Of a stretch of DNA of 64,000 nucleotides, positions 8,259-50,262 are shown piece after piece. The DNA lies in NCBI GenBank assembly GCA_050084515.1, contig CM114271.1:32674001-32738000 (forward strand). The letters are read 5' to 3'. Each line of letters begins with the position of its first letter. Position 1 is the first letter of the stretch. The notes under the pieces are model-generated. The model was not told where the DNA came from, searched no databases, and worked only from the letters and a program-made list of their open reading frames with translations. The position numbers and the translations under genes were made by a program. The DNA comes from Blasia pusilla. Its lineage: Eukaryota.

Positions 8259-9261
8259 ATAACACCTCCGCCATGTCACGTCGAATTGCTGCAGGTAAAT
8301 CTCGCTCTCTCCCAAAGAGCAAAAAGTACGATGAAAATGACGCCAAGGATGCATGCCGACTAAAGCGATAACCCATAGCCAACCATGGCAACTGTAGGTC
8401 CCACTCCCTCAACTGTCCCCGCTGCAAGCCATACTTGCGCAATCCTCTCTTCACCATATGTACCACTCTCTCTGTCAACCCATCTGCCTCAAGATGATCT
8501 CTGGACGTGGTGCGGTGATCTATCAGCACCTGATCACACAAGGCCTGAAACTCTCCCCTAAACTTGGTACCCTGGTCAGTCAACACCTCCGCCGGTGCAC
8601 CAAAGTCACTAAGCACACGATCTAGAAACGCATAAGCTGTTCCCTTGCTGGCCTTGTCTGGTAGTGCCACCGACTCTATCCACTTGGAGAAATGCTCCAC
8701 CATGACCAACACGTACCTATGATGACGTCTCGTCAATGGCAAAGGTCCCGCAAAGTCTAAACTCCACTGATAACCTAAACTCATAATCGGCAAAGGATGT
8801 AACTGCGGAGTGGGAGCATTAAAGGATGCTCGCACTCTGTCACATACCATACATCTGGCCACAAACTGCTGTACCCCAGTATGCATGCCGCGCCACCAAT
8901 ACTGAACCTAGAGTAAGTTGTAAGTACGCTTTACTCCGAAATGTCCCAACTCCTCATGGGCATGTCGCACTACACCTGCTTTCTGGGAAGGATGAGGTAC
9001 CACTCGTATCCTACCATCTCCCCATACGCGCAAAATGTGAGTCCCCTCCCACCTGAACCTCTTGGCTCTCTGTAGGATCCGATCCCGCTCCCTAGCACTC
9101 ACTGTACTCGCAATGACGCCAGTCCGCAAGAACTCCACAACCTCCACGTCGTCATGGATATCAAGACCACCTGTCGCCTCCTCACTAACCTCCGGATCCA
9201 AAGACTCCTCATCCAACCCCACCACTGGAGTCATTACCTGTGGCTGACCTGCCATAGTCAA
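8259..9261 (-). pseudogene. Integrase of copy A (HHCC zinc finger plus DDE core), C-terminus deleted
   Basis: HAHEELGHFGVKRTYNLL...CMVCDR; WSLDFAGPLP; VLTDQGTKF; EADGLTERVVH (ORFs 8908-9261 and 8230-8886). Confidence 0.92.
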
Positions 9262-10860
9262 CCAACAAAGATAGGCAGATGCATGCAGCTGGGCACCATC
9301 TCCTCATCACTCTCTCCGTGCCATCGAGCTCCTCTGTCGTCTCTCCGACTCGGACATGGGTTACGACTCAACCCATCCACATCCTGGTTCAGCCAACCTG
9401 GCCTATGAACCACCTCAAACTCATACTCTTGTAGTAATAGAGCCCACCTGGCAAGCTTTCCCGTAAGCTTGTCGGACTCCATCAACCACCTCAAACTCAT
9501 ACTCTTGTAGTAATAGAGCCCACCTAGCAAGCTTTCCCGTAAGCTTGTCGGACTCCATCAACCACCTCAACGGCTAATGATCAGTGATAAGTGTGAAAGG
9601 GTTGCCAAATAAATAGCACCTGAAATGTGCCACGACCCACACTGCAGCCAAGCACTCTCCCTCGTAGGAGCTGTACTTTGCCTATGCAATGTTGTTTGAT
9701 CGGCTTCGCGTAAGCCACAACGAACTCCCTCTCCTCGTCATCCCTTCGAGTAAGCACTGCTCCTAGACCCAACTTGCTCCAATCCGTATGTAACTGGAAT
9801 GGGCGACCCCTAACCGGTCTCTGTAAAATGGGTGAGGACGTCAACCTGTCCTTGAGCTCTTGAAATGCTCGCTCTTGATCATCTCCCCACAACCAAACTT
9901 GATCAAGTCTCGTCAACAAGGTCAAAGACTTTGCGATCGCACTAAAACCCTTGACATACCATCGATAGAAGTTCGCCAGTCCAAGAAATGCTCGGACTCG
10001 ACTCACATCTGTAGGGCGTGGAATCTGCGCAATAGCCTCTACCTTCGTCTGCTGAATGCCTAACCCACTTGGGTATATGGTGTGTCCCAAGTACTCAATC
10101 TGCTCCTGAAAGAATCTGCACTTTCCTGGATGTAACTTCAGTCCATGTAATTGCAATCGCCGAAATACCTCCTCCAAGTGTCGCTCATGCTCCTCAACCG
10201 TGGAACTGAAGATAAGAATATCATCTACGTAACATCATACAAAATCCAAGCCAGCCAGAATCCTATCCATCACTCTCTAAAACTCTGCAGGTGCGTTCTT
10301 CAACCCAAATGGTAAGAACCGCCACTGATACAAGCAATATCTCCCGAACCGATCTATCCCCTGAATCGTTTGTCTTCTCCCTATCCTCCAACCTGATAGG
10401 AAGCAGATGATAGCCAGCACGGAGATCTAAAGTACTGAAGATCTTTGCATGCCCTACCGCATCAAAGATCTCCTCAGGAGTTGGCATGGCGTACCGATCT
10501 GACCTCACCTGTTGGTTGATAGGACGGTAATCTCCACACATCCGCCTATCCGTCCAATTGCCATACATATCCTTCTTCGCCGGCATGACTGTGGCACATG
10601 CATATTCCCCATGTGATAACTCCACGAGTCCTGCCTCCAACAAGTCGTGACTTCTGCTCTGAATCAAGGCTCGCTCCATATCAGAATACCTGTAGGGTCA
10701 ACGAAAGATCTGCGTATCACTAGCCAACTCAATCCGTATCTCGGGACCCTTCAGCGTACCCAAGTCTCTCATACTGAAGGAAAAAAAATTGACATGCCCT
10801 CTCAGAAACCTATGAACTCGCCGTCGCTCTCCTCCTATCAACTTGAGACCTATCACAGGC
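9258..10860 (-). pseudogene. Reverse transcriptase and RNase H of copy A, with frameshifts and stops
   Basis: RRMCGDYRPIN, FSTLDLRAGYH, LPFGLKNAPAEF, YVDD (10220-10231), KLHPGKC...IEYLGH, LHTDWSKLGLGAVL, KLARWALLLQEYEF. Confidence 0.93.
9408..9570. repeat. 76-bp tandem duplication inside RNase H of copy A
   Basis: The unit starts at 9408 and 9484; the 11-bp AACCACCTCAA recurs at 9408, 9484 and 9560; one mismatch between copies. Confidence 0.9.
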
Positions 10861-11189
10861 TCCCAAGTCTCCATCATGACCTTGCTCGGAGAGGACGCAA
10901 CCTCCGGCTTTGGTTGCTATGTAGCAACCCTAGCCACCTCCGCAACAACCACTCCACTTTGACCTCCTACACCATGCTCCACATCCAAAAAATGAACATG
11001 TGCTACTCTAGCCGCCTTTGCACTCTCTGCTGGAACGACGTCCCAGGAAGTCCATGGGTGCCTATCTCTCCTCGTCTCGCCCCGACCAATGCTGTCACAG
11101 ACCACTGAGGCAATGGTCCAACTCGTGGACGTGACGGCATGGATGACACTCGCATCCGTCTCTGCTCAGCCATACCTAGGCTGACTATC

Positions 11190-12150
11190 CATGTGAGACA
11201 GTTGAGGTCCATTGCCTGCCCCAACACCTGTCTCCGGGATGCCTCAGTTATCCTTGACATCGCCGTAGTACCGGTAGTGAACCCCATGGTGTGCTTGCGA
11301 TCATTTGCTGTAGGCTCCTCCAATGCTCCGGTCACCTTATCCAAAATCATGCCTGGCCTTCCCTAACGAAAGGCATGGGATGCTGGGAAGCTCACCAACG
11401 TAGGTAAGGCTGCCCTCAACTCCCCCATCCAATTGGCCATGGCCAACGGTGGTCTATCATCGCGTGTCATCACCTGAGATCAACGCCCTGAGCCCAAAAT
11501 AGCATCCACTGTGAGATGTGGTGCTCTCTGGACTCCATCGTATGCTCGACTCAATACCTCTAATGGTATCAGGTTCGTCCACAACAGTCGTGGACGATGG
11601 GCACGTGATCCAACTCTCGCCGCATCTAATAACACAGCAGGTCCCAACCAGGACCTCACCTGATACACACTCTTCATTACACGTGCACGAGTGTCTCCCA
11701 ACAACGGCACGTTCTCCAAGATGTACGTTGGAGAACATGTTTGACTCTCCTGCAAGTGTCGTACTACTCGTAGCATCTCCTAAAACATCCCTGACCTCGG
11801 ATGGTGCAATCCAAATCCTCAGCCAGCTGATGAATGACCTTGACATGGCCATCCAACAATCACCAAATGAATGGTGCCAACTCTATCCAGATCGTGCGCC
11901 CCCACCAAAGAGATGTCGGCGGGTAGTGTATGATGATATCCTCGTAGTGCAGATACCGGAGACAAATCAGGATACCTCTAGACCAATCTCGCCACGTGAC
12001 GTAATGATACTCTCCGCGCGGTCTCATCTCTCTCCACATAAGGGTATTGATGCACCCGTATGCCCGCCTGCAATACTGCAGCCAATCCGGTGCTAGTCCC
12101 TCCGAAGAGATCTAACACCCTAACACTCTCCTCTGGGCACTGCCACACAA
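11190..12150 (-). pseudogene. C5-cytosine DNA methyltransferase domain (DNMT3-like) within pol of copy A
   Basis: Motif I VRVLDLFGG (LDLFGG 12098-12115), II YPYVERD, IV VGWPCQG (GWPCQG 11837-11854), VI YILENV (ENV 11708-11716), VIII LDAARVGSRAHRPRLLWTN, IX EPTANDRKHTMGF, X RRQVLGQAMDLN (11204-11236), all in canonical order. Confidence 0.9.
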
Positions 12151-12499: not shown

Positions 12500-13117
12500 T
12501 AACTAACTCATCCGGCCGTCACCTGACCGCCCCCCTGGCCGATAAGAAACGGTCTCCTCCCAGAAGTCAAGGATGAATCCTAGGGGATATAACAGTGTAC
12601 TCCCCACCAACACATCCTACGACTCAGTTGGTGTCGTAATCGCACGTGTGCGCACCATAGCACTATCCATCTCATGCTCTGGCTGGAATCTGACAACTAT
12701 CTCCTGTCGAGTCATATACTGCGTGGGTGACACGCCCCCAATCGAGGTATGTATCTGTAAGGGAAAAGGCTTAATGTCGGCCTTCCGTAACCCCAACGCT
12801 AAACACGCCGCCTTCCCTAACATCAAGGGTTGCGCTCCCGAATCCACTAGGACACGCTGCGGGTGGTATACTGTCCCCGTCGGACTAACCAAGCAAAATA
12901 CTCCAGCTCGGTTATCCAGTAACACTACTCTAGGTGTCACCACTGCTTGCTCTATGGCCAGTCGAGCTGGCATATCTACCAACTTCGCCGCCGCTGCATG
13001 CCATGACTCTATGGGGAACGTCCCGAGCACCGGCATTGAGGGCAAGTCCACCACCTCCTCAACTACCTCTGAACAAGAAACACTCAACTCTCCACGCTCA
13101 CACAACGTGGCGGCCAA
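12500..13117 (-). pseudogene. Aspartic protease of copy A
   Basis: RVLVDSGAQPLMLG (retropepsin D-S-G) and a downstream YDVLVG motif. Confidence 0.85.
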
Positions 13118-13251
13118 TCAGAACACCTCAGCTGGTCCAACCCCCAACGTCGCCATCTCTATGGCGGAAAATAGCAGAGTCTGACTCACTCTGGTGGCCA
13201 CCTCCAACACTATGGTCGACTCTGACTCCACTTGAGCCGGGATAGGAGTTT

Positions 13252-14985
13252 TCACTCCAACTCCTCGAGGCGTCGACGTAGGTGCTTGAGCTGTAGGCAC
13301 CGCTGGTCGTCGAGGCACCATCGATGGTGTGTGTAGTGCCTCCGACAATGTGAATGATTGTGGAACCCTGGCTTGCCCCCATCGGTCCCCTCTGGTGGGT
13401 CAATCTCAACTCCACCTCTTGATGTCTCGGTGCCTCTCGCAGCACCCCGAGTCACCACTACCGCTGCCTCAACCCGGGTTGCACTACACATAAGCCCCAT
13501 ACTGGCGAGATCCTCACTTGGGTCAGGGTAAGAGGTAGAAGCTAGAGTCCCACTAGCTGCTTGCAGGTCCGTGCCTTCCCTAAGCTGCATCATCGTCATG
13601 GCAGCAATCTTCTGCTCTAACTTATCGATGCGTGAGAGAAGTGTCGGCTCTGGTACTCCTGCTCCCTCTCCTCTGGCTGGTGGTGGTCCTCTACCATCAC
13701 GTCCAGGAAGAACTCCCCGACCTCCTCCAAGACGACCGGCCCCAAGCCCTCGGCCTACCTCTAGACGTGCCTCTCGGCGAAGGTCAAAACACCTATCCCT
13801 AGTGTGACCATATCTATGGCAATAGTCACACTGGTGCTATGGTGGGACCATCCTCTGTGGCACCTGAGCAATCGGAGGCGCAGGTGGTTCTCTCCCATGC
13901 TGTGGGCAGTCTCTCTGCCTATGGGCCCCTCCACACGTCCAACAAGACCACATCGGTCCCTTCTGGGCAACATATGTAGGTACGGGTCGTTGCCTCATAG
14001 GCTCATGGTACCCGCCCTGCTCTCTAGGCACACTGGCCCGCTCCCGTGGTATTGGTGCTCGCTGTGGCACCTGTGGGGTCACCTTTGCTCGTGGACCCGT
14101 TGACTCTCGAGAAAATCCAGCGATGACTATCTACTCCTCACTCATGTTGAGCTCAATACGCTCAGACAACTCAAAGACCACCTTCAATGTGGGCTTCGTT
14201 GTGTGAATCAGCACCACATCTCGGACTCTCCTCCGTAGTTCTCGGTCCAGAACCCCGTACCAATACTGGACTGATTGCGCTTTAGTCACTCCATACGTAG
14301 CAATGATCAGCCTCCTCATGCGTGTGAATGCCTCTCTCAAACTCTCACCCGATCGTCGCTAAAAATCGTGTAGACTCTTCAGCTTGTCGGTGCGTACACC
14401 CTGGTTGCTCTTCCCCAAATGTCAGAAGAACTCCACTGTGGGGCTGAAGTTGGGTGGCCCTCTACCACCAGAGGTCTCTGCCACATCGCTTGTCTCACTG
14501 CCCTCCTCTCCATCTAGTCTCCGGGTTGATGGTGTGGATCTCTCTCCTCTCACAATCCCATCATATGCCTTGCGACCACTAGTGGACACATACCCTAGAG
14601 CCCAATACATCCTCCAGGCATTGATCTCTACTGAATATAGTGATCGAAACTCCATGTAGTCATCCATCGGAGGACCCCCCAAGTGCTGGAACAACCCCTT
14701 CCATGCCATGAAAGGATTGAACCGTGTCGGGGTCCATATCTCTTGGAAGTTGCACCACGTGTCGAACTCCTGGATAAAATCATCTAAGTGGATGATACCC
14801 ACTGCACCCGAGAATTGATGCATGCCCCGATGGCCCATGTCGTCCATCTCCTGCCAAGTGATACTGCCTCCGTCTGCGATCTCGTCACCAGACCCAGTAT
14901 CTAGTGATGACGATCCAACCATGGATGGATGTCGAGGTAGATCCTCACTCTTAACTCCTCGGTATCTCACTCCACTCCGTGTCAC
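13252..14985 (-). pseudogene. Gag of copy A with two zinc knuckles
   Basis: ORF pieces 14422-14985, 14131-14340 (GESLREAFTRMRRL) and 13837-14082 (CWTCGGAHRQRDC), then CDYCHRYGHTRDRC at ~13790-13832; homologous to the gag of copy B. Confidence 0.8.
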
Positions 14986-31710: not shown

Positions 31711-32312
31711 TGTGACGAGTTGATCATCATTGATGTCTTGCGAGTAGACATTGCCGCCAACATACATCGGCTATCATGCCGACAAGTCTAAGATCCATCT
31801 AAGTATGAATCCTAATACATCTACACATGAACAATTGGACAAACCCAATATAAAATATGAAGTTGATGAAATATGTTATCAATATGTGTGATCTCCGATC
31901 AATCCTAGCCCATTCTTCAAGAAAGAATCCAAGTTCAACACACATGCAAGCTACAATTTTGTCACGTATCCCAACATGGATATGATCTAAGAATGATGAG
32001 CTTTGAAATTTGAGCTTTATTTGAGGTATATCCCCCTTGGGCATCTCTATGGGTGACATATACATCTAGGTAACCTCCTCCAAGTATGTCATCGATAACA
32101 TGGAGTATACAAGGTACTAACTCCCTAACAATAACACACATGGTCCTCTCATAGGACCAACTACTACTCAATTGCCAACTAACCTAGTCTCGAATCCTAT
32201 AAGCCTAAGTGGCTCCGCACAAAGGATAAGAAGGTCAATCTCTCCAAGGTTGCCACTCTTCATAAAGAAAGTATGACCTACATTCAAGGATACCTTCTAA
32301 TCGCAGGTCACA
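31711..32312 (-). mobile_element. Probable old solo LTR related to the Gypsy LTRs in this window
   Basis: TGTGAC...GTCACA termini, 602 bp; internal similarity to 44380-44710; GAGGTATATCCCC plus GGTGACA-N10-GGTAACC, as in the solo LTR at 47918-48563; no TSD. Confidence 0.55.
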
Positions 32313-34212
32313 TATGACCTCTCAAAATGAGTAAGTAGAAGACACCTCTAAGGCCTCAATACCATTTGCCCTACTTCTCATCTACCATAACATTGACCAA
32401 CCTTCATCATTATTATTTATTTCTTATTTTCTCATCCTTCTACGAATGTTTTACATGGCCACTTAGCATCCTATATGCTATGGAAATAAATGGATCTTAT
32501 TCTTCATATTTTTTTAACTTATTCCGTAAATATCTATTATGACAATTTTTTTTTCTTCATGATCGGCCCTATATGTAATGATTCCATTGTCAATGAACTC
32601 AATCTCCTGCTGTGACAACATTACAAATATTAAATGAATTATAGCAAGACCATTGATTCACGTACTATTCTTACTTATCTCATTTTGATAAAAAAACATT
32701 GATAATGAAAATAATTATGGTCACATCTTAACGCCACACTCTATAGCCTACACTAGAACCTACTATTTTTTGGATTTCTCAAAATTTTATGAATTTTGAT
32801 AAATCCTATTGTTTTAGTTTATTTTCTTACTATTCTTAAGATTCTATCAGAGTTATGAATCCTTCTGTCATTGGGACGCCTTTGCATAACTTTATCCTTT
32901 GGGCTTGTGAAATGCTCTTTAACATTCAAACAATTACATTCCTTTTGTTCTTGGTTTACAAAAGATTCTTTTGGAGTTAGATCTCCTCTTTCTACGCTTG
33001 CTCACATGCTTATCTACTTCAGAACCTCAACAATTAACAGGTCTTTGAACTCCATGCCATCTTTTTGTATATACCTTTCATTGATGCTTTGGACTTTTGT
33101 GTGCATTTCGCATCATCCATACTTACCTTCTCCAAATGTAGGTCATTCCCATTATTCAATTACCTCTCGTAGCAATCTTATCTTATTACACTCTATGAAC
33201 GCACTTTGATAAATTAGTTTCATTTTTTTAATTTGAATGATATGTTGTTTCCATTGTGCAGTGTGCATATAGGTAATTTCATCTTCTTGTCCAATTTCCT
33301 TTCATTGGAAATTTCTTGTTCCTATGGAACACCTCCACAATAAATATAGGTACGTCGCATGCATAAAAAATGTGTAATACGAGAAGGTTCCATCAATTTT
33401 CCCCGTGCTCACTTTGGTTCCAAGCTCACGTATTTTTTCATTAGAAGTTGCTTTTGTCCAAAACCACTTTTAATGAGATGCAATGTTGTGGATTTTGTGG
33501 CTATGTCTGCCTTGGTACTTCACCGAGATTTTTCTACATTAGAGAGTACTATGTACCCTCTATAAGCTCTATATATGTAATAGTTAAATGACAAGTTTTA
33601 TATTACCTCATAGTGGTTCTTTTTACATATGTAATAAGTGCTCTAATGATGGTGGGCAGTATGATGTAAATGTTTATATTATGCCTTCCTACACCCGCGA
33701 TTTACTTGTGGCAAACCCACTTTATTTACAATTTTTGTTGTTAATTGATAGTACGTTAGGAATATGTCCCCAATACAATGGTTTCCTTTAGGGTCAGAAT
33801 TGCTTCTAGATAGGGTTAACTAGAACATGGAAACATTTAGATGTGAGAATCTTGATTGAATATATACGAAGATCCATATTGTAATCCTTGTCAATCTAAA
33901 GGGCAACAAGTTATACGAGGATTACCTTTCCTTGATTGTATTACAAAGTCAATCATGTGGACTTGTGCTTTTTCCTTCCACCTTGATCGACAAGATTTTG
34001 GACGCATAACACGAGAAAGACATAGTAATGCATTCCATGAATGTCGATCCTTATGCTAAGGATTTAAACATTCTTCAAGACGTATAGTACTCTATGCTTG
34101 TTGTTGTGCACATACACATCACTACACAACATACATCACTGTCACCAAACACACGCACAATCCCATGTTAACTCATGGCATCCAAACAACGAGACAAGAA
34201 GTACCAAAATAT

Positions 34213-35074
34213 CTCCAGGAGTATGACTTCCACGTGGTACATAGATCTGGGACGCTCAACCAGGATGCAGATGGTTTGAGCCGTAACCCATGCTCGAGTT
34301 AGCGAGATGCAACTCGAGCTCAATGGCATGGAGAGAGTGATGAGGAGGTGGTGCCAAGATGGCACGCGTCACCCTATTTGGGCTTGTTGGCTATAGAAGC
34401 CAGATGTTGAGACTTTGATGGCTAGGTCTGATGGAGAGTCCTTAGATCCAGAGGCCGATGAGGAGACGATAGGTGGCTGAGACATTCACGACAATGGAGT
34501 GGTCTTGGAGTATTTGCATACTCGTAGAGTCGCGAGCACAATGGGTGCTAGAGAGCAGGATCGGATCCTACAACGAGCCAGACAGTTCCGGTCGGAGGGG
34601 ACACATGTGTTGCAAGTTTGGGAGGATAGTAGAGTGCGTGTAGTGCCTCATCCTTCGCAGAGAGCACGTTTGGTGCATCATGCCCACGAGGAGTTGGATC
34701 ATTTTGGAGTGAAGCGGACGTACAACTTGCTCCAGATATAGTATTGGTGGCAAGGCATACAGACTGACGTTCAACACTTTGTTGCGAGGTGCATGGTGTG
34801 TGATCGAGTCCAAGCATCGTTCAATGCTCCGACTCCACAGTTGCATCCACTTCCGATCATGGGTTTAGGTTATAGATGAAGTTTTGATTTTTCAGGACCT
34901 TTGCCTTTGACGGAGCGCCAGAGTCGTTATGCGTTGGTGATGGTCGAACACTTCTCCAAGTGGATAGAGTTGGTTGCATTACCTGACAAAGTGAGTGAGG
35001 GAGTAGCGTATTCCTTCCTAGATCGGATGCCGAGTCATTATGTCGCACTAGCTGAGGTGTTGATAGACCGTGGT
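34213..35074 (+). pseudogene. Inverted RNase H tail and integrase N-terminus/core of copy B
   Basis: LQEYDFHVVHRSG, HAHEELDHFGVKRTYNLL, CMVCDR, VMVEHFSKWIELVALPDK, AEVLIDRG. Confidence 0.9.
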
Positions 35075-35099
35075 ATCTACAACCAGATTGAATATTTGG

Positions 35100-35727
35100 G
35101 TCAATATAACACCTAGCAAAATCCAGACCTGCCAAGATCCTATCCATGACCCTTTGAAACTCAACCGGGGCGTTCTTTAACCCAAATGGTAAGAACCGCC
35201 ACAGGTACAAGCAATCCTTCCCGTGAGGATCAATGCCCCAAAATGCTATTTTCTGCATGTCCTCCAATCTGATAGGCAGATGATGGTATCTGGCTCGAAG
35301 ATCAAACGAACTGAAGACCTTGCATGCCCAATAGCATCAAAGATCTCCTCAGGGTGGGCATGGCATACCTATCAGACTTTGTCTGCCAATTGATAGGTCG
35401 GTAATCTCTACACATCTTCCTATCCGTCCAATTTCCATGCACATCCTTCTTGGCGGGCATGACAGTGGCAGATGCATACTCTCCATGCGACATCTCCACT
35501 AGTCCTGCTCCAACCAAGTCATGGCTCCTACTTTGAATCAGAGCCCTCTCCTTGTCACTGTACTTGTAGGGTCTTCGAAAGATCGGCGTGTCACTCGACA
35601 ACTCAATGCGGATCCTTGGACCCTTCAATGTACCCAAATCATGCATACTAAATGGAAAACAGTCCCTATAACTCCTCAGGAAGTGATGTATCCGCCGCCG
35701 CTCTCCTCTTGTCAACTTAGGGCCCAT
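35100..35727 (-). pseudogene. Reverse transcriptase N-terminal half of copy B, broken within YIDD
   Basis: PIFRRPYKYS, RKMCRDYRPIN, AFWGID, LPFGLKNAPVEFQRVMDRILAGLDFARCYID, then the breakpoint. Confidence 0.9.
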
Positions 35728-36094
35728 ATTTGGCTCTCAAGTCTCCATTGTGACTACGGTAAGACTCTTTGACGTTGGTGTAGGTGGTTGGTATGGTGCA
35801 ATCCTATCTCGGACAACAGAACTCGACTGCTCCCTTACAGCCAATTGCAAAATCGGATCTCCATGTGCAGTACCCGACACCACTCTAGATGTTGTGGCTA
35901 CCATCTCTAGGCGTACCTGCAAAACATCCCAAGAAGTCCAAGGATGTCTCTCCCGATCACCCATGGTGTGTCGATCTCCTCGGGTCTCGCCCCCAGCCAC
36001 TGCCTCAACCGTCTTGGTAGACATGGGGCTCACCAACGCAACAACTATGATCTATCACATCCGCAAACAACGTTGCTCAACAATTCCTAAGTTG

Positions 36095-37065
36095 AAAATC
36101 CATGTCAAGCAATTCAGGTCCATCGCCTGACCCAAGACATGACGTCGTGATGCCTCTAATAGTGATGGTATTGCCGTCACTCTTGTGGGAATCCCATCAC
36201 TCGCTCTCGCTCATCGGCGTTGGGCTCCACCAACTGCTGTACTTGGTCATCCCAAACCAAGCTAGGTCTGGCCTCCTTGAATGCATAAGAAGCTGGAAAA
36301 CTCACCAAGGTGGAAAAGGCTACCTATGGCATGCCAATCTTGTTGACCACAGTCAATGGCGGTCGATCATCGTATTGTACTGCCTCTGATCGATGACCTG
36401 GATCCAAAATAGAATCCACCAATAAATCAGAGGGGCGCTCCACTCTTGCATATGCCCTCCGCAACACCTCGTGTGGTACCAAGTTGGTCCACCAAAGATG
36501 CGGGCGGTGTGCTCTAGAACCTACACTTGCCGCATCTAATAACATTGTCGATCCAATCCATGCGCGCACTTGATGTGCACTTATCACCACGCGGGACCTC
36601 GAGTCGCCCAAAATCGGCACATTCTCAAGAATGTATGATGGAGAACAAGGCTGATGCTCTTGTAAATATCACAAGATCCGCATCATCTCCCAAAAAAACC
36701 TGGACCGAGTTTTAGTTAACCCGCTACCTCCTCCAGCACTTGATTGGCCTTGACACGGCCAACCAACAATGACCAAGTGTATGGTCCCTACGCTCTCCAA
36801 GTCCTGCGCCCCCAGCAATGAAATGTCCCTCGGTAGGGAACTCTGGTAACCCTGGATGGCGGACGCAGACAACAAGTCGGGAAAGCGGAGGCGTAACTGC
36901 GCCACATGATGAAGTGAAGCGCGCCTCGCAACATCATCAATCTCCACATACAGGTACTGCTGCACGTGTACTCTTGCTTGCAAAATAGCAGCTATATAAC
37001 CTAGTGTTGATCCCTCCAAAGAGATCCAACATCCGAATACCCTCCTCTGGGATGCGCCATACAAT
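36095..37065 (-). pseudogene. C5-cytosine DNA methyltransferase domain (DNMT3-like) of copy B
   Basis: IRMLDLFGGINT (LDLFGG 37012-37029), YLYVEIDD, LPRDI, IVGWPCQG (GWPCQG 36747-36764), ILENV (ENV 36618-36626), LDAASVGSRAHRPHLWWTN, VEPNADERERVMGF, RRHVLGQAMDLN (36112-36147). Confidence 0.9.
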
Positions 37066-37399
37066 AGATGTGGTGTCCAAGGGCGTCATCATAGCACTTT
37101 CGACTACCTCGGGTTCCTCTGACCCCTCACACTCTATTGCAAATGCCTCGCTCCATGCAGTCTGCACATGCTCAATGGCTAAGCATCGAAGCTCCTCAGT
37201 CGAGCCCCAAAGCGGCACCTCTCCTCCACGGACTGATATGGCGACCATGACACTCCTCTCCATAGAAATGTCAGGAACGGACGTATCCTCTGTGTGGACA
37301 TGTCCCTCAGTCAAATCACTAGGCCAAGTGATGGCACTGCTAGATGCTGCTAAGGTCGCCATCTCTCTTGGCCGTCGCTTGATCACTGAACTTGTGAAT

Positions 37400-39900
37400 C
37401 AAGTAATGAGCTAAGGCGCCATCACCTGAGTGCCATCCTTGTGTGAAGCGTGCTGACTCCTCCCAATAATCCAGGGAAAACCCTATTGGTTGTAACAATG
37501 CTCCACCAACCAAGACGTCGTAGGACTCTACATCAGTCACTATTGCCTTGGCTCGCACCACGGACTCATGTGTAGGATGTCCCGAGCGAATCCTCTCCAC
37601 GACCTCCTATCGGGTGATATACTATGTGGTACTTGCTCCATCCAAGGATGTCTGTATCCGGAATGGACAACGCTCCACATCGGCTCTAGTCAAACCCAAT
37701 CCTATGAATGATGCTTTCCCCAACATCAGGGGTTGCGCTCCTAAATCCAACAAGATGCGCTGCGGACTAAAAGCTCTACTTCTAGGACTCACCAATTGGA
37801 AGACCTCTCCCTGCAACACAACTCCAAGAGAAGCCATGGCCCGCTCTATCGCGGGTCTAGCGGGCATCTCCGCCATCCTAGCAGTTGCAGCCTGCCATGA
37901 ATTTGATGTGGACGGCCCGAGCATCCGCTCCAAGAGTAGGTCCATCACCTCCTCTACAATCACCTCTGAACGTGATGCAAGAACTCCAACTCCACGCTGA
38001 CATAGCGTAGTGGCCAGCCAGAACACCTCGGCGGGCGTACCTCTCAATGTCATAACATCGGAAGCAGAAAATAGCAAAGCACGGTACACCATCATGGTCG
38101 CTCCCAACATTGTATTCAACACATGCTCCTCTTGAGCATCAGCAATAGGAGTCTTCGTACTCGTTTCTCCCATCACTTTCCCTATGTGCACAACAGTAAT
38201 ATTGCCAACTCTCCGGGAAATTTGATCAAGACTCATCTATGGGGTCCTCATCGCCTTGGACAACGTGAATGATTGAGGAATCCTCGTCTGTTTCTTGGCT
38301 TCCCTCCGCTGTGGATCTAACTATGCAGTTGCTCCACTCGTCACAACTACGACAGCCTCCGTCTGGAAAATCTCGCATATCCAACCAAATCCTCCATATC
38401 TCTGGATGCTCCATATGATGTCGATGCCACGGATCCGGCATCGGGTAACCTCAATGCCATAGCGCAATCTACTCTTGTAGCTGTTGTATCTCAACAACCA
38501 TCCTTGCCTCACGCTCGGCATCTCCCTCAATGCGTCTAGGTGGTGAGACTCTACCTCCTCAACAGGAAACTCCACCACCTTGTCGCGCAACTCCAGCTCC
38601 TCGTCCCCCAACAGAACCACCTGATGCACGACTTCTAGGCCCATCCGGACTGGCTACTCGCTCTCGTGCCCTCTCTGGCCCTCGCTCCGAATGTAACTCA
38701 AGGTGTAAACTGAAACACCTGGCGCGTGTGTGACCATAACTTTGACAATAGTCACATTGATAACCTCCTAGTGCATCACCATCTCCTCCTCCATGCTGAG
38801 GCACACGTCCATGACCCTGACGAGTGCAATCACCCTGATGATGGGCTCCACCACATGACCAACAAGTAATCATAGACTGCTGGTGCTGAGCCGCATGTGA
38901 AGGCGCAAGTTTCTATGGCATGGCCTCCCGGTATCCTCCTTGAGCTCGTGGTGCCACAGTCAACCTATCTTGGAGTCCACATTGCTACACTAGTGGTACA
39001 GGCAATTGTGACTGCTCTTGCCTAGAACCCATGGCGGCTACGCTTTCCTCCGCCATATTGCGCTCAATGTTCTCTGTGGTCTTAAAAACATCTCTCAATG
39101 TAGGTGAGGTGTTCATAAGAAGCACCCCCTCCCACTCCCGTGCCCGTAGGGTCCGATCCAGCATCGCGTACCATGACTGGATAGCCTGAGCCTCTCTCAT
39201 CCCCTGAGTGAAGTTGATCAACCGACGCAAGTGAGTGTAAGCCTCACGCAAACTCTCACCCAGGTGCCCGTGGAAGTTGTGGATGCTCCACAACTTCTCT
39301 ATTCGTACCCCCTGGTAGCTCGCCCTCAACTCAGCAAAGAACTCAACCACGGGGTTGAACTTGGGACGAACGCGACTAGACGGTGCAACTGCTCCTGTGC
39401 GAGTGACGCCTCCTAAAAAATCACTAGTGGAAGAGGAAGTAGCCTCTGCTGACTCCTCCTCCTCATGTGGGAACGACTCTGTCCATGACACATAGTGTGG
39501 GTCATAGTAGAGTCACCATATCTCAATCTCCTCGGCATATCTGTGGGAGAACTCATGATAATCGTCCATGGGTGCCCCCTTTAAATGCTGGAATATACCG
39601 TTCCATGCTGTAAATGGGTTGAACTCTCTAGAGTTCCTAGCCCGTTGTGAGTCACACCAACTCCTAAACTCCGCAATGAAGTTGTGTAGCTCTATAGTGC
39701 CTACAACACCCAAAAACCTACGTGGTCCTCTACCTTGATCGTCCATCTCGTACGCCCAACTAGTAGGACCACTCAATATGTATGGTGGATTACTAACACA
39801 CTCCTATACACGCTCTCCCTCGTTTGAAGATGATACAGAAGGAGATCAAGGTGGTCTCTCACGTGGAGACCCTCGAAACCTCGCACCACTCCGGGTAAAC
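37400..39900 (-). pseudogene. Gag (two Zn knuckles) and protease of copy B
   Basis: GESLREAYTHLRRL, CWSCGGAHHQGDC, CDYCQSYGHTRARC, RILLDLGAQPLMLG, YDVLVGG. Confidence 0.85.
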
Positions 39901-40744
39901 CCTCCATAGCTACTCTCAGGTCCACTACCTCTCCTCTCAAAATCCCGAAAGGCTGCCTTGATGACCCTTATGCCCCTCTCACACGATCACTCTCAATCTT
40001 GCAAGTAATCCCTCAATCACTCAAACTAAACATGCGGCACTCAATCTACACTCTCTCACTAAGACGTGTGTTGTGCGGCAACAAGCGGCGTGGTCCGAAA
40101 AATGAACTGATCTATCGTCTCATGGATAAACCATCCTCAACTCTGGACATCCCACACAGGTCTATGTCCCCTAAACCCATACATCATCGATGCTCTCAAC
40201 ATCAGCACGAAACCTAATATCCCAAATAACTTCCCAATACCCGGAAATCCCACACACGTGTAGGGTAAGAGACCAAAATGGGTAACCTGACAATAATGTC
40301 AATGTCGCTCCTCTACAACTGCAAATCTTGACCCTAACTCGTTCGTGAAGATAACTCCTCCAATCAGCAAGTCGTACTCTGCTCGTACTGATGTTGCTTA
40401 AACCTCCTCAATATGCGGTGTGGATCTAGCAATTCGGTGCGGCACTAGCGGCATGGAACGGCTACAAAATGACATGGCACTTGATAATGGGATGTGGCAC
40501 TCCATAGCATACCCTCCTCAATCAGCAATACACACTCTTTTCTCCTTAGTGAAGGAGCGGCTCCGCGATCGAGACGGTGCGGTGCGGCCTCGAGCGGCAC
40601 GACGCGGCAATTGGCGGTGCATTGCGGCTACGGGCCTCACGCATGCATCAACATCTGCGACAATAGCACTCCTCAAAGGCCATCTAGGGATCATCAATGG
40701 GGTCCAAAGAGCTCTAAAAATGGGAAAGAGTGGATAAGTCTAGC

Positions 40745-41186
40745 TTGCCTGCCAGCTTCTCCCCTCTGGAGATCCAACTCCACATCGGATCGTTGTGGCT
40801 TAGAAGCTCTCATCGTGCCTCTCGTAACCACTATATCTGCATCCACCTGTGCAGTGTTGCACAAAAATCCCATACCTCCTAGAGCATATAGAGGGCCACA
40901 GCATATCGAGAAGTAGACACGCCCCCCATACTTGATGTAGATGCCTGTTGGGCCGTCATAGCGTGAAGGCGTTGCTCCAACTGAGCAATCCTCACCAAAG
41001 TTGCCTCTAATGCAAGTGTTGCACTTGCTCTAGAAGGTGGTGGGGTCCTGCCTCCACCACATTATCGACCTCCTACACCTGGTCCTCTGCCACCTCCAGG
41101 TCCTCCACCTCCCTCTACGCGCAGCTCGGGGTGGAGCTCGAAACATCTCTCAGGTGTGTGGCCATATCTCAAGCAATGATCACACT
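40745..41186 (-). pseudogene. Gag fragment of a fourth copy (D) of the same Gypsy family
   Basis: The minus strand reads CDHCLRYGHTPERCFELHPEL and ...CNTAQVDADIVVTRGTMRASKPQRSDVELD, homologous to copy A CDYCHRYGHTRDRCFD and CSATRVEAAVVVTRGAAR...GVEID. Confidence 0.75.
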
Positions 41187-41775
41187 CACTAGAAGAAATC
41201 CTTGGGTTATATGACTCATACAAGTCATACTTTACATTCCACGACTAGAAATGACTGATGACTACTTTAGACACAAAAGCCAAGTCATATTTGTCTGGCG
41301 ACTAGGCTAACTAGGATGGTCGGCTTAGGTGGACGTTGGTATATGACTAGAGGATGTAGTCATGAGGCCATGATTGACACATCACCAAGATGACGTGGAA
41401 TAATGACACATCAACGTATGAAGTGGACTAATTGGTGTGACATGTCACTAATGATGTGGACTATGGAAGATAACTTGTGTAGTCATATCTAGGGTATCTG
41501 TATAGTTACCACTAATGACTACAATAGTCATGTTTAGTCATGTCAAAGTACACAATATCCAATGACAATGTGACTGGTGTACCCCATGGGTGAGGAATCC
41601 ACTTGGCAGTAATAGTCATGTCTCCACCAGTCATTAAATTTTCAGGTTCAGTTGTAGTTAGCGACTTGTGTACTCATTCCAATTTTTTCCAATGCTATAA
41701 TGTACTCATGTAGTCACCTTTAATCACTCACCAAGTAGTGACACATGGCTAGAGTAGAAGGCCCTACAACTAGTG
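41187..41775. mobile_element. CACTA-like non-autonomous DNA transposon terminus/fragment
   Basis: Begins CACTAGAAGAAAT exactly where the gag fragment stops; followed by dense ATGAC/GTCAT subterminal-type repeats; possible right end CTAGTG at 41775 or TAGTG at 41740; 3-bp TSD not confirmed. Confidence 0.55.
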
Positions 41776-44710: not shown

Positions 44711-45929
44711 TTCACAAAAATCTAATACTTGGTCCATGTCTTACACTTGAGACTAGTGTTTTCCTTATCTTATTTATGTATTTGAGATATTTCTATCAAG
44801 ATGGCATACCTTTCTTAGAATATTTATCTCGTCGTACTAGAGAACTATTTTTGAGTTTTACCTTATATAAACCCTACATGTTATTGATGTATCAACTAAG
44901 ACAATCTATACAAGAATCTATAGCACTTGCCTCCACCTTTAAGGATCCGATCCCATGTGGCCAAGATCGCCAAGACTTATGTGTACATGTCACGTTGTTT
45001 TGCTATTATTGTTTTAGGTAAGTATCATTCTATACTTACCTACTATTATTGGGAGTGGGTTTGATTTGACATTGAGAGAGAAATGTAAGAGTGCACACAT
45101 GTGAGAGCTATGGTGTTGTGAGAGAGATTTGACCTTATTTTACAAAGAGAGAATGAGAGGGTGAGAGCTAGTTTTGATAGGGATTGAGTATGGGGGGGTT
45201 GCCCTATGCTGGTGCTCTCGGGAGCACCATATAGCTTGCTGATTTGTATTTTCACAGGTTTTACATTTTCGTTGGGAGAAATCAGCGCGGAAGCGCTGCC
45301 AAAATTTATGTAGGAGAAGAGATGTTAGGATTTACAAGAGTCCCAGTAAGTTTTTATTGGAATGTCCGATTTAAAATATTTTTTGATGCCATCGTAGATC
45401 ATAAAGTTGCGCACGCTGTGCAATAGACGATGCACGATTTGGAGTATGAGCATAAAGTTATGGCCGATTTTGAAAAACCGCCATTGTTAGGTAATTTTTA
45501 GGATAAAATTGTTCAAACCCTAAACCAACCGCCGCGCCGGCGGCGGCCGTCATCTTCAACGGTCCACCATCATCTTCGATGGCCTATTGTCACCATCAAC
45601 GGTCCGCCATCACCGTCGATGGTCTATCATCATCGTCCGATGTCGACCTTTGACCGTCGATCGTCGTTGAGAGCCGCATTCGGCTGTTGTCCGTTGTTGG
45701 TTGCCAATGCCACCATTATGGAGTGGACGGTCTTCCACGACAACCGTTGATTCTTTGACTTACACCGCCACCATGTACTTTTTTGTGGCCGCCACTATCA
45801 TTGCAATTCCGTCATCAACCAGTGATGGCAAGTAACCTCGGGTTACGGTGTTTGAGATTTCATTTCATTTTGCTCTGTCCCACGTTCTCTAGGAGTGAAG
45901 ACGTTGATACCCTTTTACACCACATCGAT

Positions 45930-46880
45930 TTTGTGGCAATATCCCGAGGAGGGTGTATGTATACTTGATCTCTTTGGAGGGATTAGTACAACATTGATTG
46001 TAGTGTTGCAAGCTGGAGTACAAGTACATCAGTACTTGTATGTTGAGAGAGATGAGACTGCACGGAGAGTCTCATTACATCATGTGTCGAGACTAGTCTA
46101 GAAGTATCCTCAATTATTGCCAGTGTCTGTTGTCATGGGATATCAACATGTATTGTCAGCCAATATTTTGTTGATGGGGGCACCAGATCTGGATAGGGTT
46201 GATCCGATACACTTGGTGGTGGCAGGATGGCCATGTCAGGGTCATTCTTCGGCGGGTTAGGGACATGGTTTGCAGAACCCGAGGTCGGCCATTTTTTGGG
46301 ACATGTTGTGAGTTCTCCGATACTTGCAGACTACCCAGTGATGTTCTCCAGCTTATTTTGGAGAATGTCCCATTGTTAAGTGACTTTTGAGCCCAAGTGG
46401 TGGCAAGTGTACATCAGGTTTGGTCATGGATAAGACCGGCTGTGATGTTGGATGCAGCGAGTGTTGGATCACGCGCACATCGGTCACAATTGTGGTGGAC
46501 AAACCTTTTACCATCCGAGTTGTTGAGGTGGGCTTATGATGGAGTCCAGAGACCATCACTACTAACACTGGATGTGATCTTGGATCCAGGGCGGCGATCT
46601 TAGGTTGTTACCCGTTGGTAGTGGGCCAGCAAAAGGCAGCATCTCAGGCAACATTGCCTACGTTGGTGAGTTTTCTGGCATCTCATGCTTTTTGTCAGGG
46701 AGGACCAAGCATGATATGGGGTCAGTAGGAAGGTACACTGGTGGAGCCCAACGCTGACGAGTGAGAGCGAGCTATGGGGCTATCTACAGGTACGACGATG
46801 ATGCCTATGATGGAAAAGGCATCCCTCAGATAGGTATTGGGTCAGGCTATAGGACCTGAACTGTCTTACTTGGATGTTCA
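45930..46880 (+). pseudogene. C5-cytosine DNA methyltransferase domain (DNMT3-like) of copy C
   Basis: VCILDLFGGIST (LDLFGG 45964-45981), YLYVERD, VVAGWPCQGH (GWPCQG 46225-46242), ILENV (ENV 46361-46369), LDAASVGSRAHRSQLWWTN, VEPNADE*ERAMG, LR*VLGQA (46825-46861). Confidence 0.9.
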
Positions 46881-47190
46881 GTCTTGGTTTGGCTAAGCAG
46901 TGACGCCTGCGAGAGGCGTCTGTGACATTACGTCCACTTTGCAGCGCTACGTCTACCCGAACGGGTGAGACATTGGCTGGGGGCGTGATGGTGATGGAGA
47001 GGCATCCATGGACTTCATGGGATATGTCACGAGAGCACAGAGAGATGGAAGTTCATTTTGTTGATGCAAGACATAGTGGATGCCTAGAAAGTTGGTGTCT
47101 GAGTTGGGAGAGCATGTTGCTGCTCCAGAGGTTGCTAGTTAGCAACCACCACCCTCCTCTTCTCCAAAGATCGCAAGAGAGACTTGGGAG

Positions 47191-49020
47191 ATGGTGATTG
47201 GTCCTAGGTTGACAGGAGCGGAGAGGAGACGAGTGTTGCAGTTCTTGTGGAGATTCAGAGATTGTTTTGCATATACTATGAATGACTTGGGTACACTAAA
47301 GGGTCCAGATATTCGGATCGAGTTGGATAGTGATATTCCTATCTTCCGACGACCCTACAGGTATTCCGACATGGAGCGAGCCTTGATTGAGAGTAACAAT
47401 CGAGACTTGGCTGACGCTGGAATGGTGGAGAGATTGCTTGGAGAGTATCCATCTACTACAGTTATGCCGACAAAGAAGGACATGCATGGCCAATGGACTG
47501 ATAGACGGATGTTTGGGGATTACCATTTGGATTGAAGAACGCCCCTGCACGTTTTCAACGAGTTATGGATAGGATTTTGGCTGGTTTGGATTATGCGAGA
47601 TGTTACATCGATGACATTTTTGTCTTCAGTGCCACGGTTGAGGAGCATGAGAGACATATGGAGGAGGTGTTTTGATGATTGCAATTACATGGGCTGAAAT
47701 TACATCCAAGCAAGTGTGGATTCTTCCATGACCAGATCGAGTACCTTGGACACATCATTTATCTAGGGGGTATTGGGGCAGCGTATGAAGATGGAGGCCA
47801 TAGCGCGCATTCCCCACCCTACAGATGTGAGTCGAGTTCGAGCTTTCATGGGATTGGCGAACTACTACCGACGGCACGTGAAGGGCTTTAGTGCCATTGC
47901 GAAGGCATTGACTTTAGTGTCGTGCGCATACACATCGCTACACAACATAGATCGCTGTCAGCGAACACACACACACACAAACACACACAATCCCATGCTA
48001 ACTCATGGCATCCATACACAGAGACGAGGAGTACCAAAATATCTCCAATAAAGTAAGATCCAATTTATCTCTACACCATCTCACACCATAGCTCTCAAAG
48101 GTGTGCACTCTCTCTCATATCAAACCAAACCCACTCTCCTAATGAGAGGCTTGGGTTACACTCACAAAGCAAGGGACCATAGCTCCGCCGCCTTATGCCA
48201 AGAGGTTCAACAAAGAGAGAATGAGCTCTCAAAGCTCCCTCTCTTGGAGGTATATCCCCTTCCCTCTACCAAGCCCTCTCAACGGTAACCTATGCTCGCA
48301 GGTCACCTCCTTGGCTCTTGAACTACTGTAACGGGTCAAGGGCTATTTCCCAAAGTGGAAATTCAACTATCCCCAACATGGAAACTTACCCCGAAATAGT
48401 AAGTTTCTCTATATGACTCCAAATGAACCGAAACGAAGGGGAAACCTCCTCTCTCAGGTTTCGTGGGGCCTCTGCATGTCATTCTCGACCTCCTGGGCAT
48501 GTCCTCCACTACTTGTGAAGACGCTTTGCTAGATCCCACCGATCTATCCTAATAGTCGTGACATTGCTGACTAGGTTGGACCAGGAGTGGTTTTGGGGAG
48601 ATGATCAAGAGCGAGTATTTCAGGAGCTCAAGGATAGGTTGATGTTCTCAAACATTTTGAGGAGACCTATGCGTGGTCGTCCGTTCTAGTTACATACGGA
48701 TTGGAGTATGTTGGGGTTAGGAGCGGCTCTCACTCAAGAAGATGATGAGGGGAAGGAGTTCGTAGTGGCAGATGCAAGCCGCTCGAACAACAAAGGCGAA
48801 GTTCCTATGAGGGGGAGTGCTTAGCTGCACTGTGGGTAGTGGCCCATTTCAGTTGTTATTTGTTCGGGAACCCTTTCACACTCGTCATTGATCATTAGCC
48901 ACTCATGGTTGATGGAGTCTGACAAGCTTACAGGGAAGCTTGCCAGATAGCCACTCTTGTTACAAGAGTATGATTTTCAGGTTATCCATCGCCCATAACA
49001 TCTAAACCACGATACGGACG
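47191..49020 (+). pseudogene. RT and RNase H of copy C, with an internal deletion and interrupted by a solo LTR
   Basis: PIFRRPYRYS, RRMFGD, LPFGLKNAP, YIDD (47604-47615), IEYLGH, SAIAKALT | LTR | LLTRLDQ, LHTDWSMLGLGA. Confidence 0.9.
47918..48563 (-). mobile_element. 646-bp solo LTR of the same family, inserted antisense into the RT of copy C
   Basis: TGTCGTG...CGTGACA termini; it interrupts AKALT/LLTRLDQ, which is contiguous in copy A; its ends match the LTR pieces of copies A and B; TSD degenerate (TTAG vs TTGC). Confidence 0.88.
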
Positions 49021-49199
49021 GGTTGAGCTGTGACCCATGCACAAGCCAGAGTGAAGTGGCATGGTGAGAGTGATGAGGAGATGGTGTCGGGTTGGCACGC
49101 ATCTGCCTATTTGTGTTTGTTGGCTATGTCAGGTTAGCATGAGGCATCCACTCCATGAGGGAGGTTGGATGGTGAATCCTTAGATCCACATGGTAGTGA

Positions 49200-50262
49200 G
49201 GAGTCGACAGGGATTGGAGATATCCACGATGATGAGATATGGTCTTGGAGTACCTACGCACTTGTGTCTTAGCGAGCACGGTGGATGCTAGAGAGTGGGA
49301 TTGAGTCCTATAGCAAGCCAGGAGGTTCAGGTGGGAGGGGACGCATGTGCTTTGAGTTTGGAGGATGGACGAGTGCGTAAGGTGCTGCATCCTTCGCAGG
49401 CAACACGAGTCATGAGACATGCTCACGAGGAGTTTGGGCATTTTGGAGTCAAGCGGACGTTTAGCTTGATTCAGATTCAGTAGTGGTGGCTTGGTATGCA
49501 GACTGATGTTCAACAATTTGTAGCCAGATGCATTGTATGTGATAGGGTGCGGGCATCGTTTCAATGCTCTAACACCACACTTGCATCCTTTATCGATCAT
49601 GGGATTAGGGAATCGCTGGAGTTAGACTTTGCAAGGCCTTTACCATTGACGGCCTTTACCATGCCATAGTCGTTACGTGTTGGTCATGGTGGAGCACTTC
49701 TCCAAGTGGATTGAGTTGGTAACATTGCCGGAAAGGTTGAGTGAGGGAGCGGCTTATGCATTTCTTGATAGAGTGCTTAGTCATTTTGGCGCACGAGCAG
49801 AGGTGTTGACAGACCAGGGTACTGAGTTTAGGGGTAATTTAGGCCTTATGTGATTAGGCCTTGATAGATCATCGTACGACTTCTTGAGATCATCGGGAGG
49901 CAGATGGTTTGGCACAGAGAGTAGTGCAGACGGTGAAGAGAGGATTGCGCAAGTATGGACTGTAGAGAGGTCATTTGGGAGATTGGGACCTACAGTTGCA
50001 GTGGTTGGCGATAGGTTACCGCTTTAGTTGGCAAGCATCCTTGGCATCATTTTCATCGTATTTCTTGCTCTATGGGAGAGAGCTAGAGTTATCATTGTCG
50101 ATTTGACGAGATGTGGTTGAGGTACTTGACCTTGACGATCCAGACGTATAGGTACGAGCGTGTTCTCAACAAGTTGAGCTCTTTCCGAGAGTCATGCTTA
50201 TGGCCTTTGAGAACCTGGCTATGCTCATCATTGCGATACTCTGAGGTACACGACTACACGTG
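49200..50262 (+). pseudogene. Integrase of copy C
   Basis: HAHEEFGHFGVKRT, CIVCDR, VMVEHFSKWIEL, VLTDQGTEF, EADGLAQRVVQTVKRGLRKYG; many stops. Confidence 0.88.

Follow-up and report, generated by a model that had tools for sequence, protein, structure and literature searches.

Hosts defend themselves against transposons chiefly by cytosine methylation. A transposon that conserves a de novo methyltransferase of its own is therefore a paradox, and one that has already been published for a charophyte alga and for dinoflagellates. In the portion of de Mendoza et al. 2018 cited here (PMC5890265), KnitGypsy-Dnmt3 of Klebsormidium nitens is described as a Gypsy element carrying an un-rearranged Dnmt3 domain in its polyprotein, with conserved key residues and a Ka/Ks < 0.2, alongside DNMT-bearing DIRS and LINE elements of Symbiodinium; in yeast, two of the SymbioDIRS-Dnmt3 domains are reported there to perform de novo CG methylation, and cDNA methylation is proposed as the role of retrotransposon DNMT3s. 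The available part of a 2026 preprint (10.64898/2026.05.21.726589) names "streptophytes (Gypsy-DNMT3)" and describes the EpiLTR DNMT as a sister group of DNMT4 that was added to pol at its 3' end. Here we analyze 64,000 nucleotides of the Blasia pusilla genome (contig CM114271.1, positions 32,674,001 to 32,738,000 of the forward strand; this whole stretch is called the window, and positions below refer to it). It very likely holds three old, dead copies of one Ty3/gypsy family, named A, B, and C, whose polyprotein included a DNMT3-type methyltransferase (MTase) between protease (PR) and reverse transcriptase (RT) that was kept under selection while the family was active.

A six-frame motif scan of the whole window located the MTase motifs GWPCQ (motif IV) at 11854(-), 36764(-), and 46225(+) and ENV (motif VI) at 11716(-), 36626(-), and 46361(+). 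Translation and tblastn against relatives place these motifs in three decayed Ty3/gypsy copies, of which A and B lie on the minus strand and C on the plus strand, with pairwise nucleotide identities of 64-79% over alignable parts. The MTase domains are the following:

11156..12133, minus strand: MTase of copy A, a DNMT3-like C5 methyltransferase, in a single frame with motifs I, IV, VI, VIII, and X present
36067..37047, minus strand: MTase of copy B, the locus from which a preliminary description of this DNA started, with motif VIII reading SRAHRPH
45946..46906, plus strand: MTase of copy C, with motif VIII reading SRAHRSQ

The preliminary description had reported the domain in three copies, and its limits agree with ours within about 30 nt. 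With stops read as X, the copy A domain matches Pfam PF00145 (DNA_methylase) at 34.7 bits (cut-off 22) and the N-terminal piece of copy B does so at 25.2 bits. Searched alone against the PDB, copy A yielded 29 matches, all of them DNMT3A/B/C. A profile built from 13 open domains had DNMT3A/3C/3B as its top 29 matches (E 8e-21 to 1e-13), followed by DRM at 1e-9 and M.HhaI at 8e-7, and DNMT1 was absent at E<=0.01 among these structure matches. By similarity and profile searches, the domain is a DNMT3-like C5 cytosine methyltransferase. Pfam reported PF00145 and neither of the reader domains PWWP and ADD in this region of the polyprotein. Dnmt3s borne on transposable elements (TEs) and those of dinoflagellates are also described as being without PWWP/ADD (de Mendoza et al. 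2018, in the part cited; PMC5890265), so reader domains do not define the DNMT3 clade.

Copy A presents its motifs in canonical order (LFGG, GWPCQG, ENV, SRAHRPR, GQAMD), an order unlike that of DRM. In the usual naming these are motifs I (FxGxG), IV (PC), VI (ENV), VIII (RxR), and X, with positions checked on an alignment with DNMT3A. The nucleotide alignment reproduces the codons quoted in the preliminary description, both for motif IV (A GGA TGG CCA TGT CAA GGT; B GGT TGG CCG TGT CAA GGC; C GGA TGG CCA TGT CAG GGT) and for ENV (GAG AAC GTG in A, GAG AAT GTG in B, GAG AAT GTC in C). Of the three catalytic signatures named there, PC and ENV are kept in all three window copies and RxR is intact only in A: motif VIII reads SRAHRPR in A, SRAHRPH in B, and SRAHRSQ in C, with B and C lacking the second arginine. 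Motifs IV and ENV alone offer too few sites for a test, and selection was judged on whole-domain tests, in which the pattern lies far outside what chance would give.

The MTase is a fixed component of this family, and while its lineages were active purifying selection constrained it almost as strongly as the RT. Homologous codons of A, B, and C were read off a nucleotide alignment phased on copy A, excluding codons with gaps or stops, and the ratio of non-synonymous to synonymous substitution rates (dN/dS, omega) was obtained by Nei-Gojobori counting with bootstrap 95% limits. Across 306-318 MTase codons (amino acid identity 0.59-0.65), omega was 0.13 for A-B, 0.21 for A-C, and 0.18 for B-C (limits 0.07-0.28), close to the 0.10, 0.18, and 0.12 of the RT (identity 0.70-0.78); that omega lies below 1 is secure, and its size is rough because synonymous sites are near saturation. 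In the MTase, 57-71% of synonymous vs 19-26% of non-synonymous sites differ among the three copies. The signal is frame-specific, as the same columns give a ratio of non-synonymous to synonymous differences per site (pN/pS) of 0.33-0.38 in frame vs 0.72-1.68 in the two shifted frames. The purifying selection asserted in the preliminary description is thereby borne out, and so is the greater divergence of the flanking linkers in protein: amino acid identity is 0.34 (A-B) in the linker before the MTase (linker1) and 0.36-0.39 in the linker between MTase and RT (linker2). Omega of linker2 was 0.39 (A-B), 0.58 (A-C), and 0.68 (B-C), and that of linker1 could not be estimated at a saturated pS of 0.78; these linker values are rough, as they come from A/B/C counts only, the linker columns of the larger copy set being mis-framed for its burst clade in the L001 frame.

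This larger set combines the window copies with loci sampled from metagenome contigs. One scan returned 80 related loci, and 46 sequences covered the MTase adequately; removal of 11 near-duplicates (>=98.5% identity) left 35 copies, i.e., A, B, and C plus 32 from metagenomes, with the codon columns of a nucleotide alignment set by the reading frame of the related locus L001. In their tree, 27 copies form a compact, star-like burst clade and eight sit on long branches (A, B, C, L001, L077, L032, and L024/L025), with A and C as sister copies at a bootstrap of 97. An open MTase is found in just 4 of the 35 (L001, L004, L024, L025), and the other 31 are broken. GWPCQG is kept in 35/35 copies, ENV in 29/35, and RxR with both arginines in 19/35; the 16 losses of RxR all fall in otherwise broken copies and mostly replace R with H, C, Q, or a stop, the outcomes expected of CpG transitions. 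All four copies with an open MTase retain PC, ENV, and RxR, and across the 13 open domains, which span both architectures introduced below, the catalytic Cys, Glu-Asn, and His-Arg-x-Arg are invariant. A variant motif IV also occurs: GWECQ replaces GWPCQ, with Glu for Pro in the PC dipeptide, in the open, selected MTases of L047, L048, L059, and L069 and in the Closterium protein P0038.

Branch classes were compared with our own Goldman-Yang codon likelihood, whose one-ratio log-likelihood (lnL) of -14315.44 equals IQ-TREE's value. On internal branches omega was 0.18, and fixing it at 1 was rejected (2dlnL 158.6); on the tips of the burst clade it was 0.99, and fixing it at 1 was not rejected (2dlnL 0.04). 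This is the contrast between internal branches and tips anticipated from an MTase that was selected in active ancestors and released in dead copies. The window tips A, B, and C gave 0.05 (2dlnL 161.5, omega of 1 rejected), which is not reliable as a point estimate because synonymous sites on long branches are saturated, and the other long tips gave 0.07. In a set of 21 copies spanning PR to RT, internal omega was 0.23 for the MTase, 0.10 for the RT, and 0.30 for the PR.

The family is widespread. The named proteins closest to copy A, all annotated as hypothetical, come from Marchantia polymorpha and Calypogeia fissa (57-69% identity) and Sphagnum fallax (44%), and Closterium proteins reach 30-41%; Riccia, Marchantia paleacea, and other Sphagnum species also gave matches. 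When representatives of clusters at 50% identity were searched exhaustively, 2176 proteins matched at E<=1e-3, 211 of them at E<=1e-30, and the domain order was mapped on 196 proteins with our own phmmer queries. Two arrangements emerged. The order gag-PR-MTase-RT-RNase H (RH)-integrase (INT) is that of the window, of bryophytes, and of Closterium, while RT-RH-MTase-INT ("type 2") was found in 40 full cases and in partial ones, including "pol [Scenedesmus sp. PABB004]". Among proteins of at least 1000 amino acids with both domains, the MTase precedes the RT in 12 and follows it in 47. The type 2 group (L046-L069, e.g., L046:4123-7968; P0058, P0059) is mostly intact in the metagenome loci. The recurrence of the same MTase position in relatives from Marchantia, Calypogeia, Sphagnum, and Closterium agrees with the earlier claim that this was not a one-off gene capture.

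Copy A carries five in-frame stops in its MTase (11978-80, 11819-21, 11780-82, 11480-82, and 11363-65) and no frameshift, copy B two stops (36669-71 and 36324-26) plus 4 nt inserted near 36994-36999 and 1 nt lost near 36188, and copy C ten stops, deletions of 2 nt and 16 nt, and a 1-nt insertion. Most of these stops are one transition away from a CGA, CAG, or TGG of other copies. At one MTase codon A and C both have TAG (11978-11980 on the minus strand and 46099-46101 on the plus strand) where B has CTC and relatives encode Q, Y, or R, and at a second homologous codon A has TGA and C has TAG; these shared stops are probably the result of parallel C>T decay. After insertion, copies decay approximately neutrally, chiefly by C>T and G>A changes that strike arginine codons and create stops. 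RIP-like mutation (named after repeat-induced point mutation) found little support as the origin of the stops: C>T/G>A changes are only moderately over-represented among the singletons of B and C and not at all among those of A. An alternative genetic code for the in-frame stops was rejected, because TAG, TGA, and TAA occur at scattered, non-homologous codons and an exon of the host gene DiT2 reads normally. CpG observed/expected ratios are 0.27 in L001, 0.55 in L024, and 0.57-0.68 in the window copies, and L001 (618-6809) has, across gag to INT, one premature stop (3192) besides the boundary stop treated below; near-intact elements show strong CpG depletion.

Several observations count against a conserved, functional MTase in this family. 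All three domains in the window are broken and no intact copy is present there, so none can be active now. The TAG shared by A and C would, if ancestral, argue against function in their common ancestor. Synonymous sites are near saturation between A, B, and C (pS 0.57-0.71), with several pairs beyond the correction limit, and stops were masked before all dN/dS work, which slightly lowers omega. The long-tip branch lengths are implausibly long, inflated by saturation. Finally, the neutrality of the burst tips is only approximate: in the 21-copy set their omega was 0.88 for the MTase, 0.71 for the RT, and 0.67 for the PR, and pairwise counting within the burst clade gave a median of 0.55, not 1.

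Given selection on the domain, the question is what it was selected for. By analogy with the described elements, the MTase could be a catalytically active de novo DNA cytosine methyltransferase whose predicted target is the reverse-transcribed cDNA or the new insertion of the element itself, and we regard this as an evenly balanced proposition. The preliminary description had concluded that active ancestors needed a catalytically competent MTase; the selection part of this statement stands, and "needed" and "catalytically competent" are readings of conserved motifs. An MTase kept for another role, such as nucleic acid or chromatin binding, RNA methylation, or particle structure, with the cDNA left unmethylated, is an unlikely alternative. 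The only published Gypsy-Dnmt3 assay, that of KnitGypsy-Dnmt3 in yeast, gave no methylation according to the part of de Mendoza et al. 2018 cited here (PMC5890265), whose authors call it inconclusive; this result counts toward such another role and against DNA methylation. The replacement of the motif IV Pro in the several open GWECQ relatives points in the same direction. On the other side, the catalytic Cys, Glu-Asn, and H-R-x-R do not vary in any of the 13 open domains and are kept in all four open copies with the MTase before the RT ("type 1"), and this is the pattern expected if chemistry, not fold alone, is selected.

Much less credible is the notion that the domain drifted along as a passenger and that its low dN/dS was produced artificially, be it by saturation, the choice of alignment, bias in codons or CpG, or stop masking. 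The saturation described above (deep pairs exceed the Jukes-Cantor limit), codon columns derived from nucleotide alignments, and masked stops all speak for it. However, pN is one third of pS in frame while in the shifted frames of the very same columns it equals or exceeds pS, and the same pipeline returns an omega of 0.99 on the tips of dead burst copies. Pairs of intact relatives from the type 2 group at unsaturated dS (0.07-0.22) give an omega of 0.03-0.12 for the MTase and 0-0.12 for the RT, and an amino acid identity of 45-69% to proteins of other plant orders could not have outlasted neutral drift. An artefact is thus largely refuted. Least credible of all, and likewise largely refuted, is a single capture carried by non-autonomous copies amplified in trans, with conservation reflecting recent common ancestry: the TAG at the same codon of A and C and the 31 broken copies among the 35 sampled would fit it, but the excess of synonymous over non-synonymous differences among A, B, and C reflects an ancestry that is not recent, the A-C omega is still 0.21 although about 275 of the 306 compared codons lie downstream of the shared TAG, and the same architecture recurs in liverworts, mosses, and a zygnematophyte alga.

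The best-supported account remains a Ty3/gypsy family that kept its MTase under selection while active. Copy A (minus strand, ~8293-14847) has the order gag-PR-MTase-RT-RH-INT; copy B (minus strand, ~35100-39749) comprises gag, PR, MTase, and an RT ending right after YID; and copy C (plus strand, ~45892-50079) begins in the linker before the MTase and extends to the integrase, without gag or PR. The PR-RT-RH-INT order of Pol and the CCHC knuckle of gag identify the family as Ty3/gypsy, with the MTase inserted between PR and RT, and the full gag-PR-MTase-RT-RH-INT order is also found in the related loci L001, L004, and L024. Besides the MTases, the copies contain these features:

13378..14847, minus strand: gag of copy A with CCHC zinc knuckle
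12554..12904, minus strand: aspartic protease region of copy A (VLVDSGAQ)
10866..11155, minus strand: MTase-RT linker of copy A, with a conserved RHPWTSWD motif, one frameshift near 11078, and a conserved in-frame stop
9854..10865, minus strand: reverse transcriptase of copy A (YVDD)
8293..9705, minus strand: RNase H and integrase of copy A
38463..39749, minus strand: gag of copy B, by homology to relatives
37457..37807, minus strand: protease region of copy B (ILLDLGAQ; DSG motif mutated)
35100..35739, minus strand: reverse transcriptase of copy B, truncated just after YID (Pfam PF00078, RVT_1)
47185..47940, plus strand: reverse transcriptase of copy C (YIDD)
48504..50079, plus strand: RNase H and integrase of copy C

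As single open pieces, the protease, gag, and C-terminal MTase piece of copy B matched no Pfam family, and they were identified through homology to relatives. Direct repeats, i.e., long terminal repeats (LTRs), were looked for on the flanks of A, B, and C, and none were found. The related locus L004 of the burst clade has direct repeats of 300 nt, 94% identical and 8747 nt apart, that bracket gag to INT; these are LTRs, and their 6% divergence fits the short, neutral tips. As had been stated earlier, the MTase follows the protease in the two copies that retain one (A and B). It does not sit directly upstream of the RT, as had also been stated: a linker of about 110-130 codons with a conserved in-frame stop separates the two. 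In copy B, the truncated RT is immediately followed by an inverted piece of an integrase from this family (34213-35095, plus strand), reflecting a rearrangement or a nested insertion, and an extra gag fragment of the family is located just upstream of the copy (40709-41205, minus strand). In the RNase H region of copy A, a duplication with a period of 76 nt (9405-9570, minus strand) repeats the peptide ...LMESDKLTGKLARWALLLQEYEFEVV.

The stop in this linker is itself conserved. It occupies the same aligned codon in 19 of the 21 copies (14 TAG, 5 TAA), and L024 has an in-frame TAG two codons upstream, so that a stop is present at or near the site in 20/21. In the window the site reads as follows:

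10917..10919, minus strand: boundary TAG of copy A (TAG CAA CCA), at the putative border between open reading frames (ORFs) 1 and 2
47140..47142, plus strand: boundary TAG of copy C (TAG CAA CCA)
35791..35793, minus strand: homologous codon TAC of copy B, the stop having been lost in a dead copy

L024 (976-8229) is otherwise fully open, with a gag-PR-MTase ORF at 976-5085 followed in the same frame by an RT-RH-INT ORF at 5086-8229. UAG_CAR_YYA is given as the leaky-stop motif (type I) of plant viruses such as tobacco mosaic virus (TMV) in the portion of PMC3542737 cited here. Following their stop, A, C, and L001 (L001:4509-4517) have CAA CCA and L024 (L024:5083-5091) has CAG TTA, and the contexts of all four fit this motif. 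Moreover, the stop lies inside a short hairpin, GGTTGCTA-CA-TAGCAACC in A (10911-10930, minus strand), GGTTGCTA-GT-TAGCAACC in C (47129-47148, plus strand), and CTGCTA-CAGAT-TAGCAG in L024 (L024:5073-5089), which RNAalifold retains in an alignment of eight sequences. Fifteen metagenome gene calls of the gag-PR-MTase or PR-MTase type end 55-181 residues past the MTase.

From the single conserved in-frame UAG between MTase and RT we infer an ORF1 plus a read-through fusion. In this scheme, the MTase would be the C-terminal domain of ORF1 (Gag-PR-MTase), and RT, RNase H, and integrase would probably be made by read-through of the stop as a Gag-PR-MTase-RT-RH-INT fusion. Each Gag molecule would then come with an MTase, which the protease of the element would cut free. 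Two findings stand against a general read-through mechanism of this kind: the burst clade has TAG or TAA followed by CAA CCC, whose second codon is not YYA, and the type 1 relative P0061 (2188 amino acids) is a continuous PR-MTase-RT-RH-INT gene call, which makes the boundary stop lineage-specific rather than universal. Only tentatively can these strands be joined into one picture, in which a bryophyte Ty3/gypsy lineage would make a DNMT3-type enzyme in an abundant Gag-PR ORF1, upstream of a hairpin-borne UAG-CAR-YYA leaky stop, and methylate its own cDNA or insertion site. If this were true, the MTase would be about as abundant as Gag and far more so than RT and integrase, and stray methylation by it could contribute to the methylomes of hosts such as Marchantia and Sphagnum.

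Outside the elements, the host genome encodes a plastid dicarboxylate transporter (Na_sulph_symp; DiT2-like) at ~52.8-57.9 kb, with exons at 52838-53812 (+) and 57316-57897 (+); one DiT2-like exon has a protein identity of 87% with Marchantia polymorpha, 84% with Riccia, and 81% with Calypogeia, which puts the host in or close to the liverworts, as a species distinct from these. Two tandem duplications lie at 16837-17404 (2 x 284 nt, 99% identical) and 60090-60457 (2 x 184 nt, 98% identical). GC content falls to 0.31-0.37 at 6001-8000, 30001-34000, and 50001-52000, between element bodies with a GC content of 0.48-0.56.

The inference of the preliminary description, i.e., that this MTase was selected in active ancestors, is correct, but it is an already published conclusion for such elements. 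The selection result is solid but expected, and the parts worth following are the land-plant distribution and the leaky-stop ORF1 model. A literature search found no description of bryophyte members, of the ORF1 placement, or of the boundary stop, which is weak evidence given its thin coverage of subscription journals and supplements; the liverwort and moss relatives and the conserved leaky-context UAG between MTase and RT appear to be new. Liverworts and mosses commonly carry such elements, and one of the hosts is the model Marchantia polymorpha, for which genetics, methylome profiling, and transformation are available, and the expression model with the MTase in ORF1 before a leaky stop is testable. 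The contrast between internal branches and tips means that selection on the MTase lasts only as long as the element lives. Should the enzyme be active, counts of bryophyte "DNA methyltransferase" genes and methylome models must account for TE-borne enzymes.

Compared with known systems, the domain is closest in structure matches to cellular DNMT3A/3B/3C, with which it shares the canonical motif order; its ENV and (A)HRxR(x)W(x)N signatures line up with those of DNMT3A. It differs from them in having no Pfam PWWP/ADD, in a motif IV that reads PCQ instead of PCN, and in being embedded in a TE polyprotein. The type 2 elements likewise carry a related MTase (33-41% identity to copy A) under strong purifying selection in a Ty3/gypsy Pol, but their order is RT-RH-MTase-INT, most of them are intact, and their sources are different and probably algal. 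Stops within retroelement genomes have precedents: gammaretroviruses read through a stop between gag and pol, and in the Dictyostelium element Skipper a stop separates gag-PR from RT. The boundary described here, which is known from the DNA, lies after PR and MTase and not after gag, and in the burst clade it is followed by CAA CCC. Its resemblance to the plant-virus leaky stop of TMV, as presented in the cited part of PMC3542737, consists of a single in-frame UAG before the RT ORF, with CAR YYA in A, C, L001, and L024. As far as the available part of the 2026 preprint describes it (10.64898/2026.05.21.726589), the EpiLTR DNMT at the 3' end of pol is another acquisition than the window MTase. 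The SymbioDIRS-Dnmt3 elements, as portrayed in the portion of de Mendoza et al. 2018 cited here (PMC5890265), are alike in having a Dnmt3-type domain in a retrotransposon Pol, purifying selection, and two coexisting domain orders; they differ as DIRS elements with a tyrosine recombinase in a dinoflagellate host, as an independent acquisition, and in that activity was demonstrated for them, while the window MTase is known from its sequence alone. The nearest likeness in the same account is to KnitGypsy-Dnmt3, which is also an LTR Gypsy element with a Dnmt3-type domain in its polyprotein, a streptophyte host, and a low Ka/Ks; by description, which is the level at which the two were compared, the difference is that the host here is a land plant, with relatives in Marchantia, Riccia, Calypogeia, Sphagnum, and Closterium.

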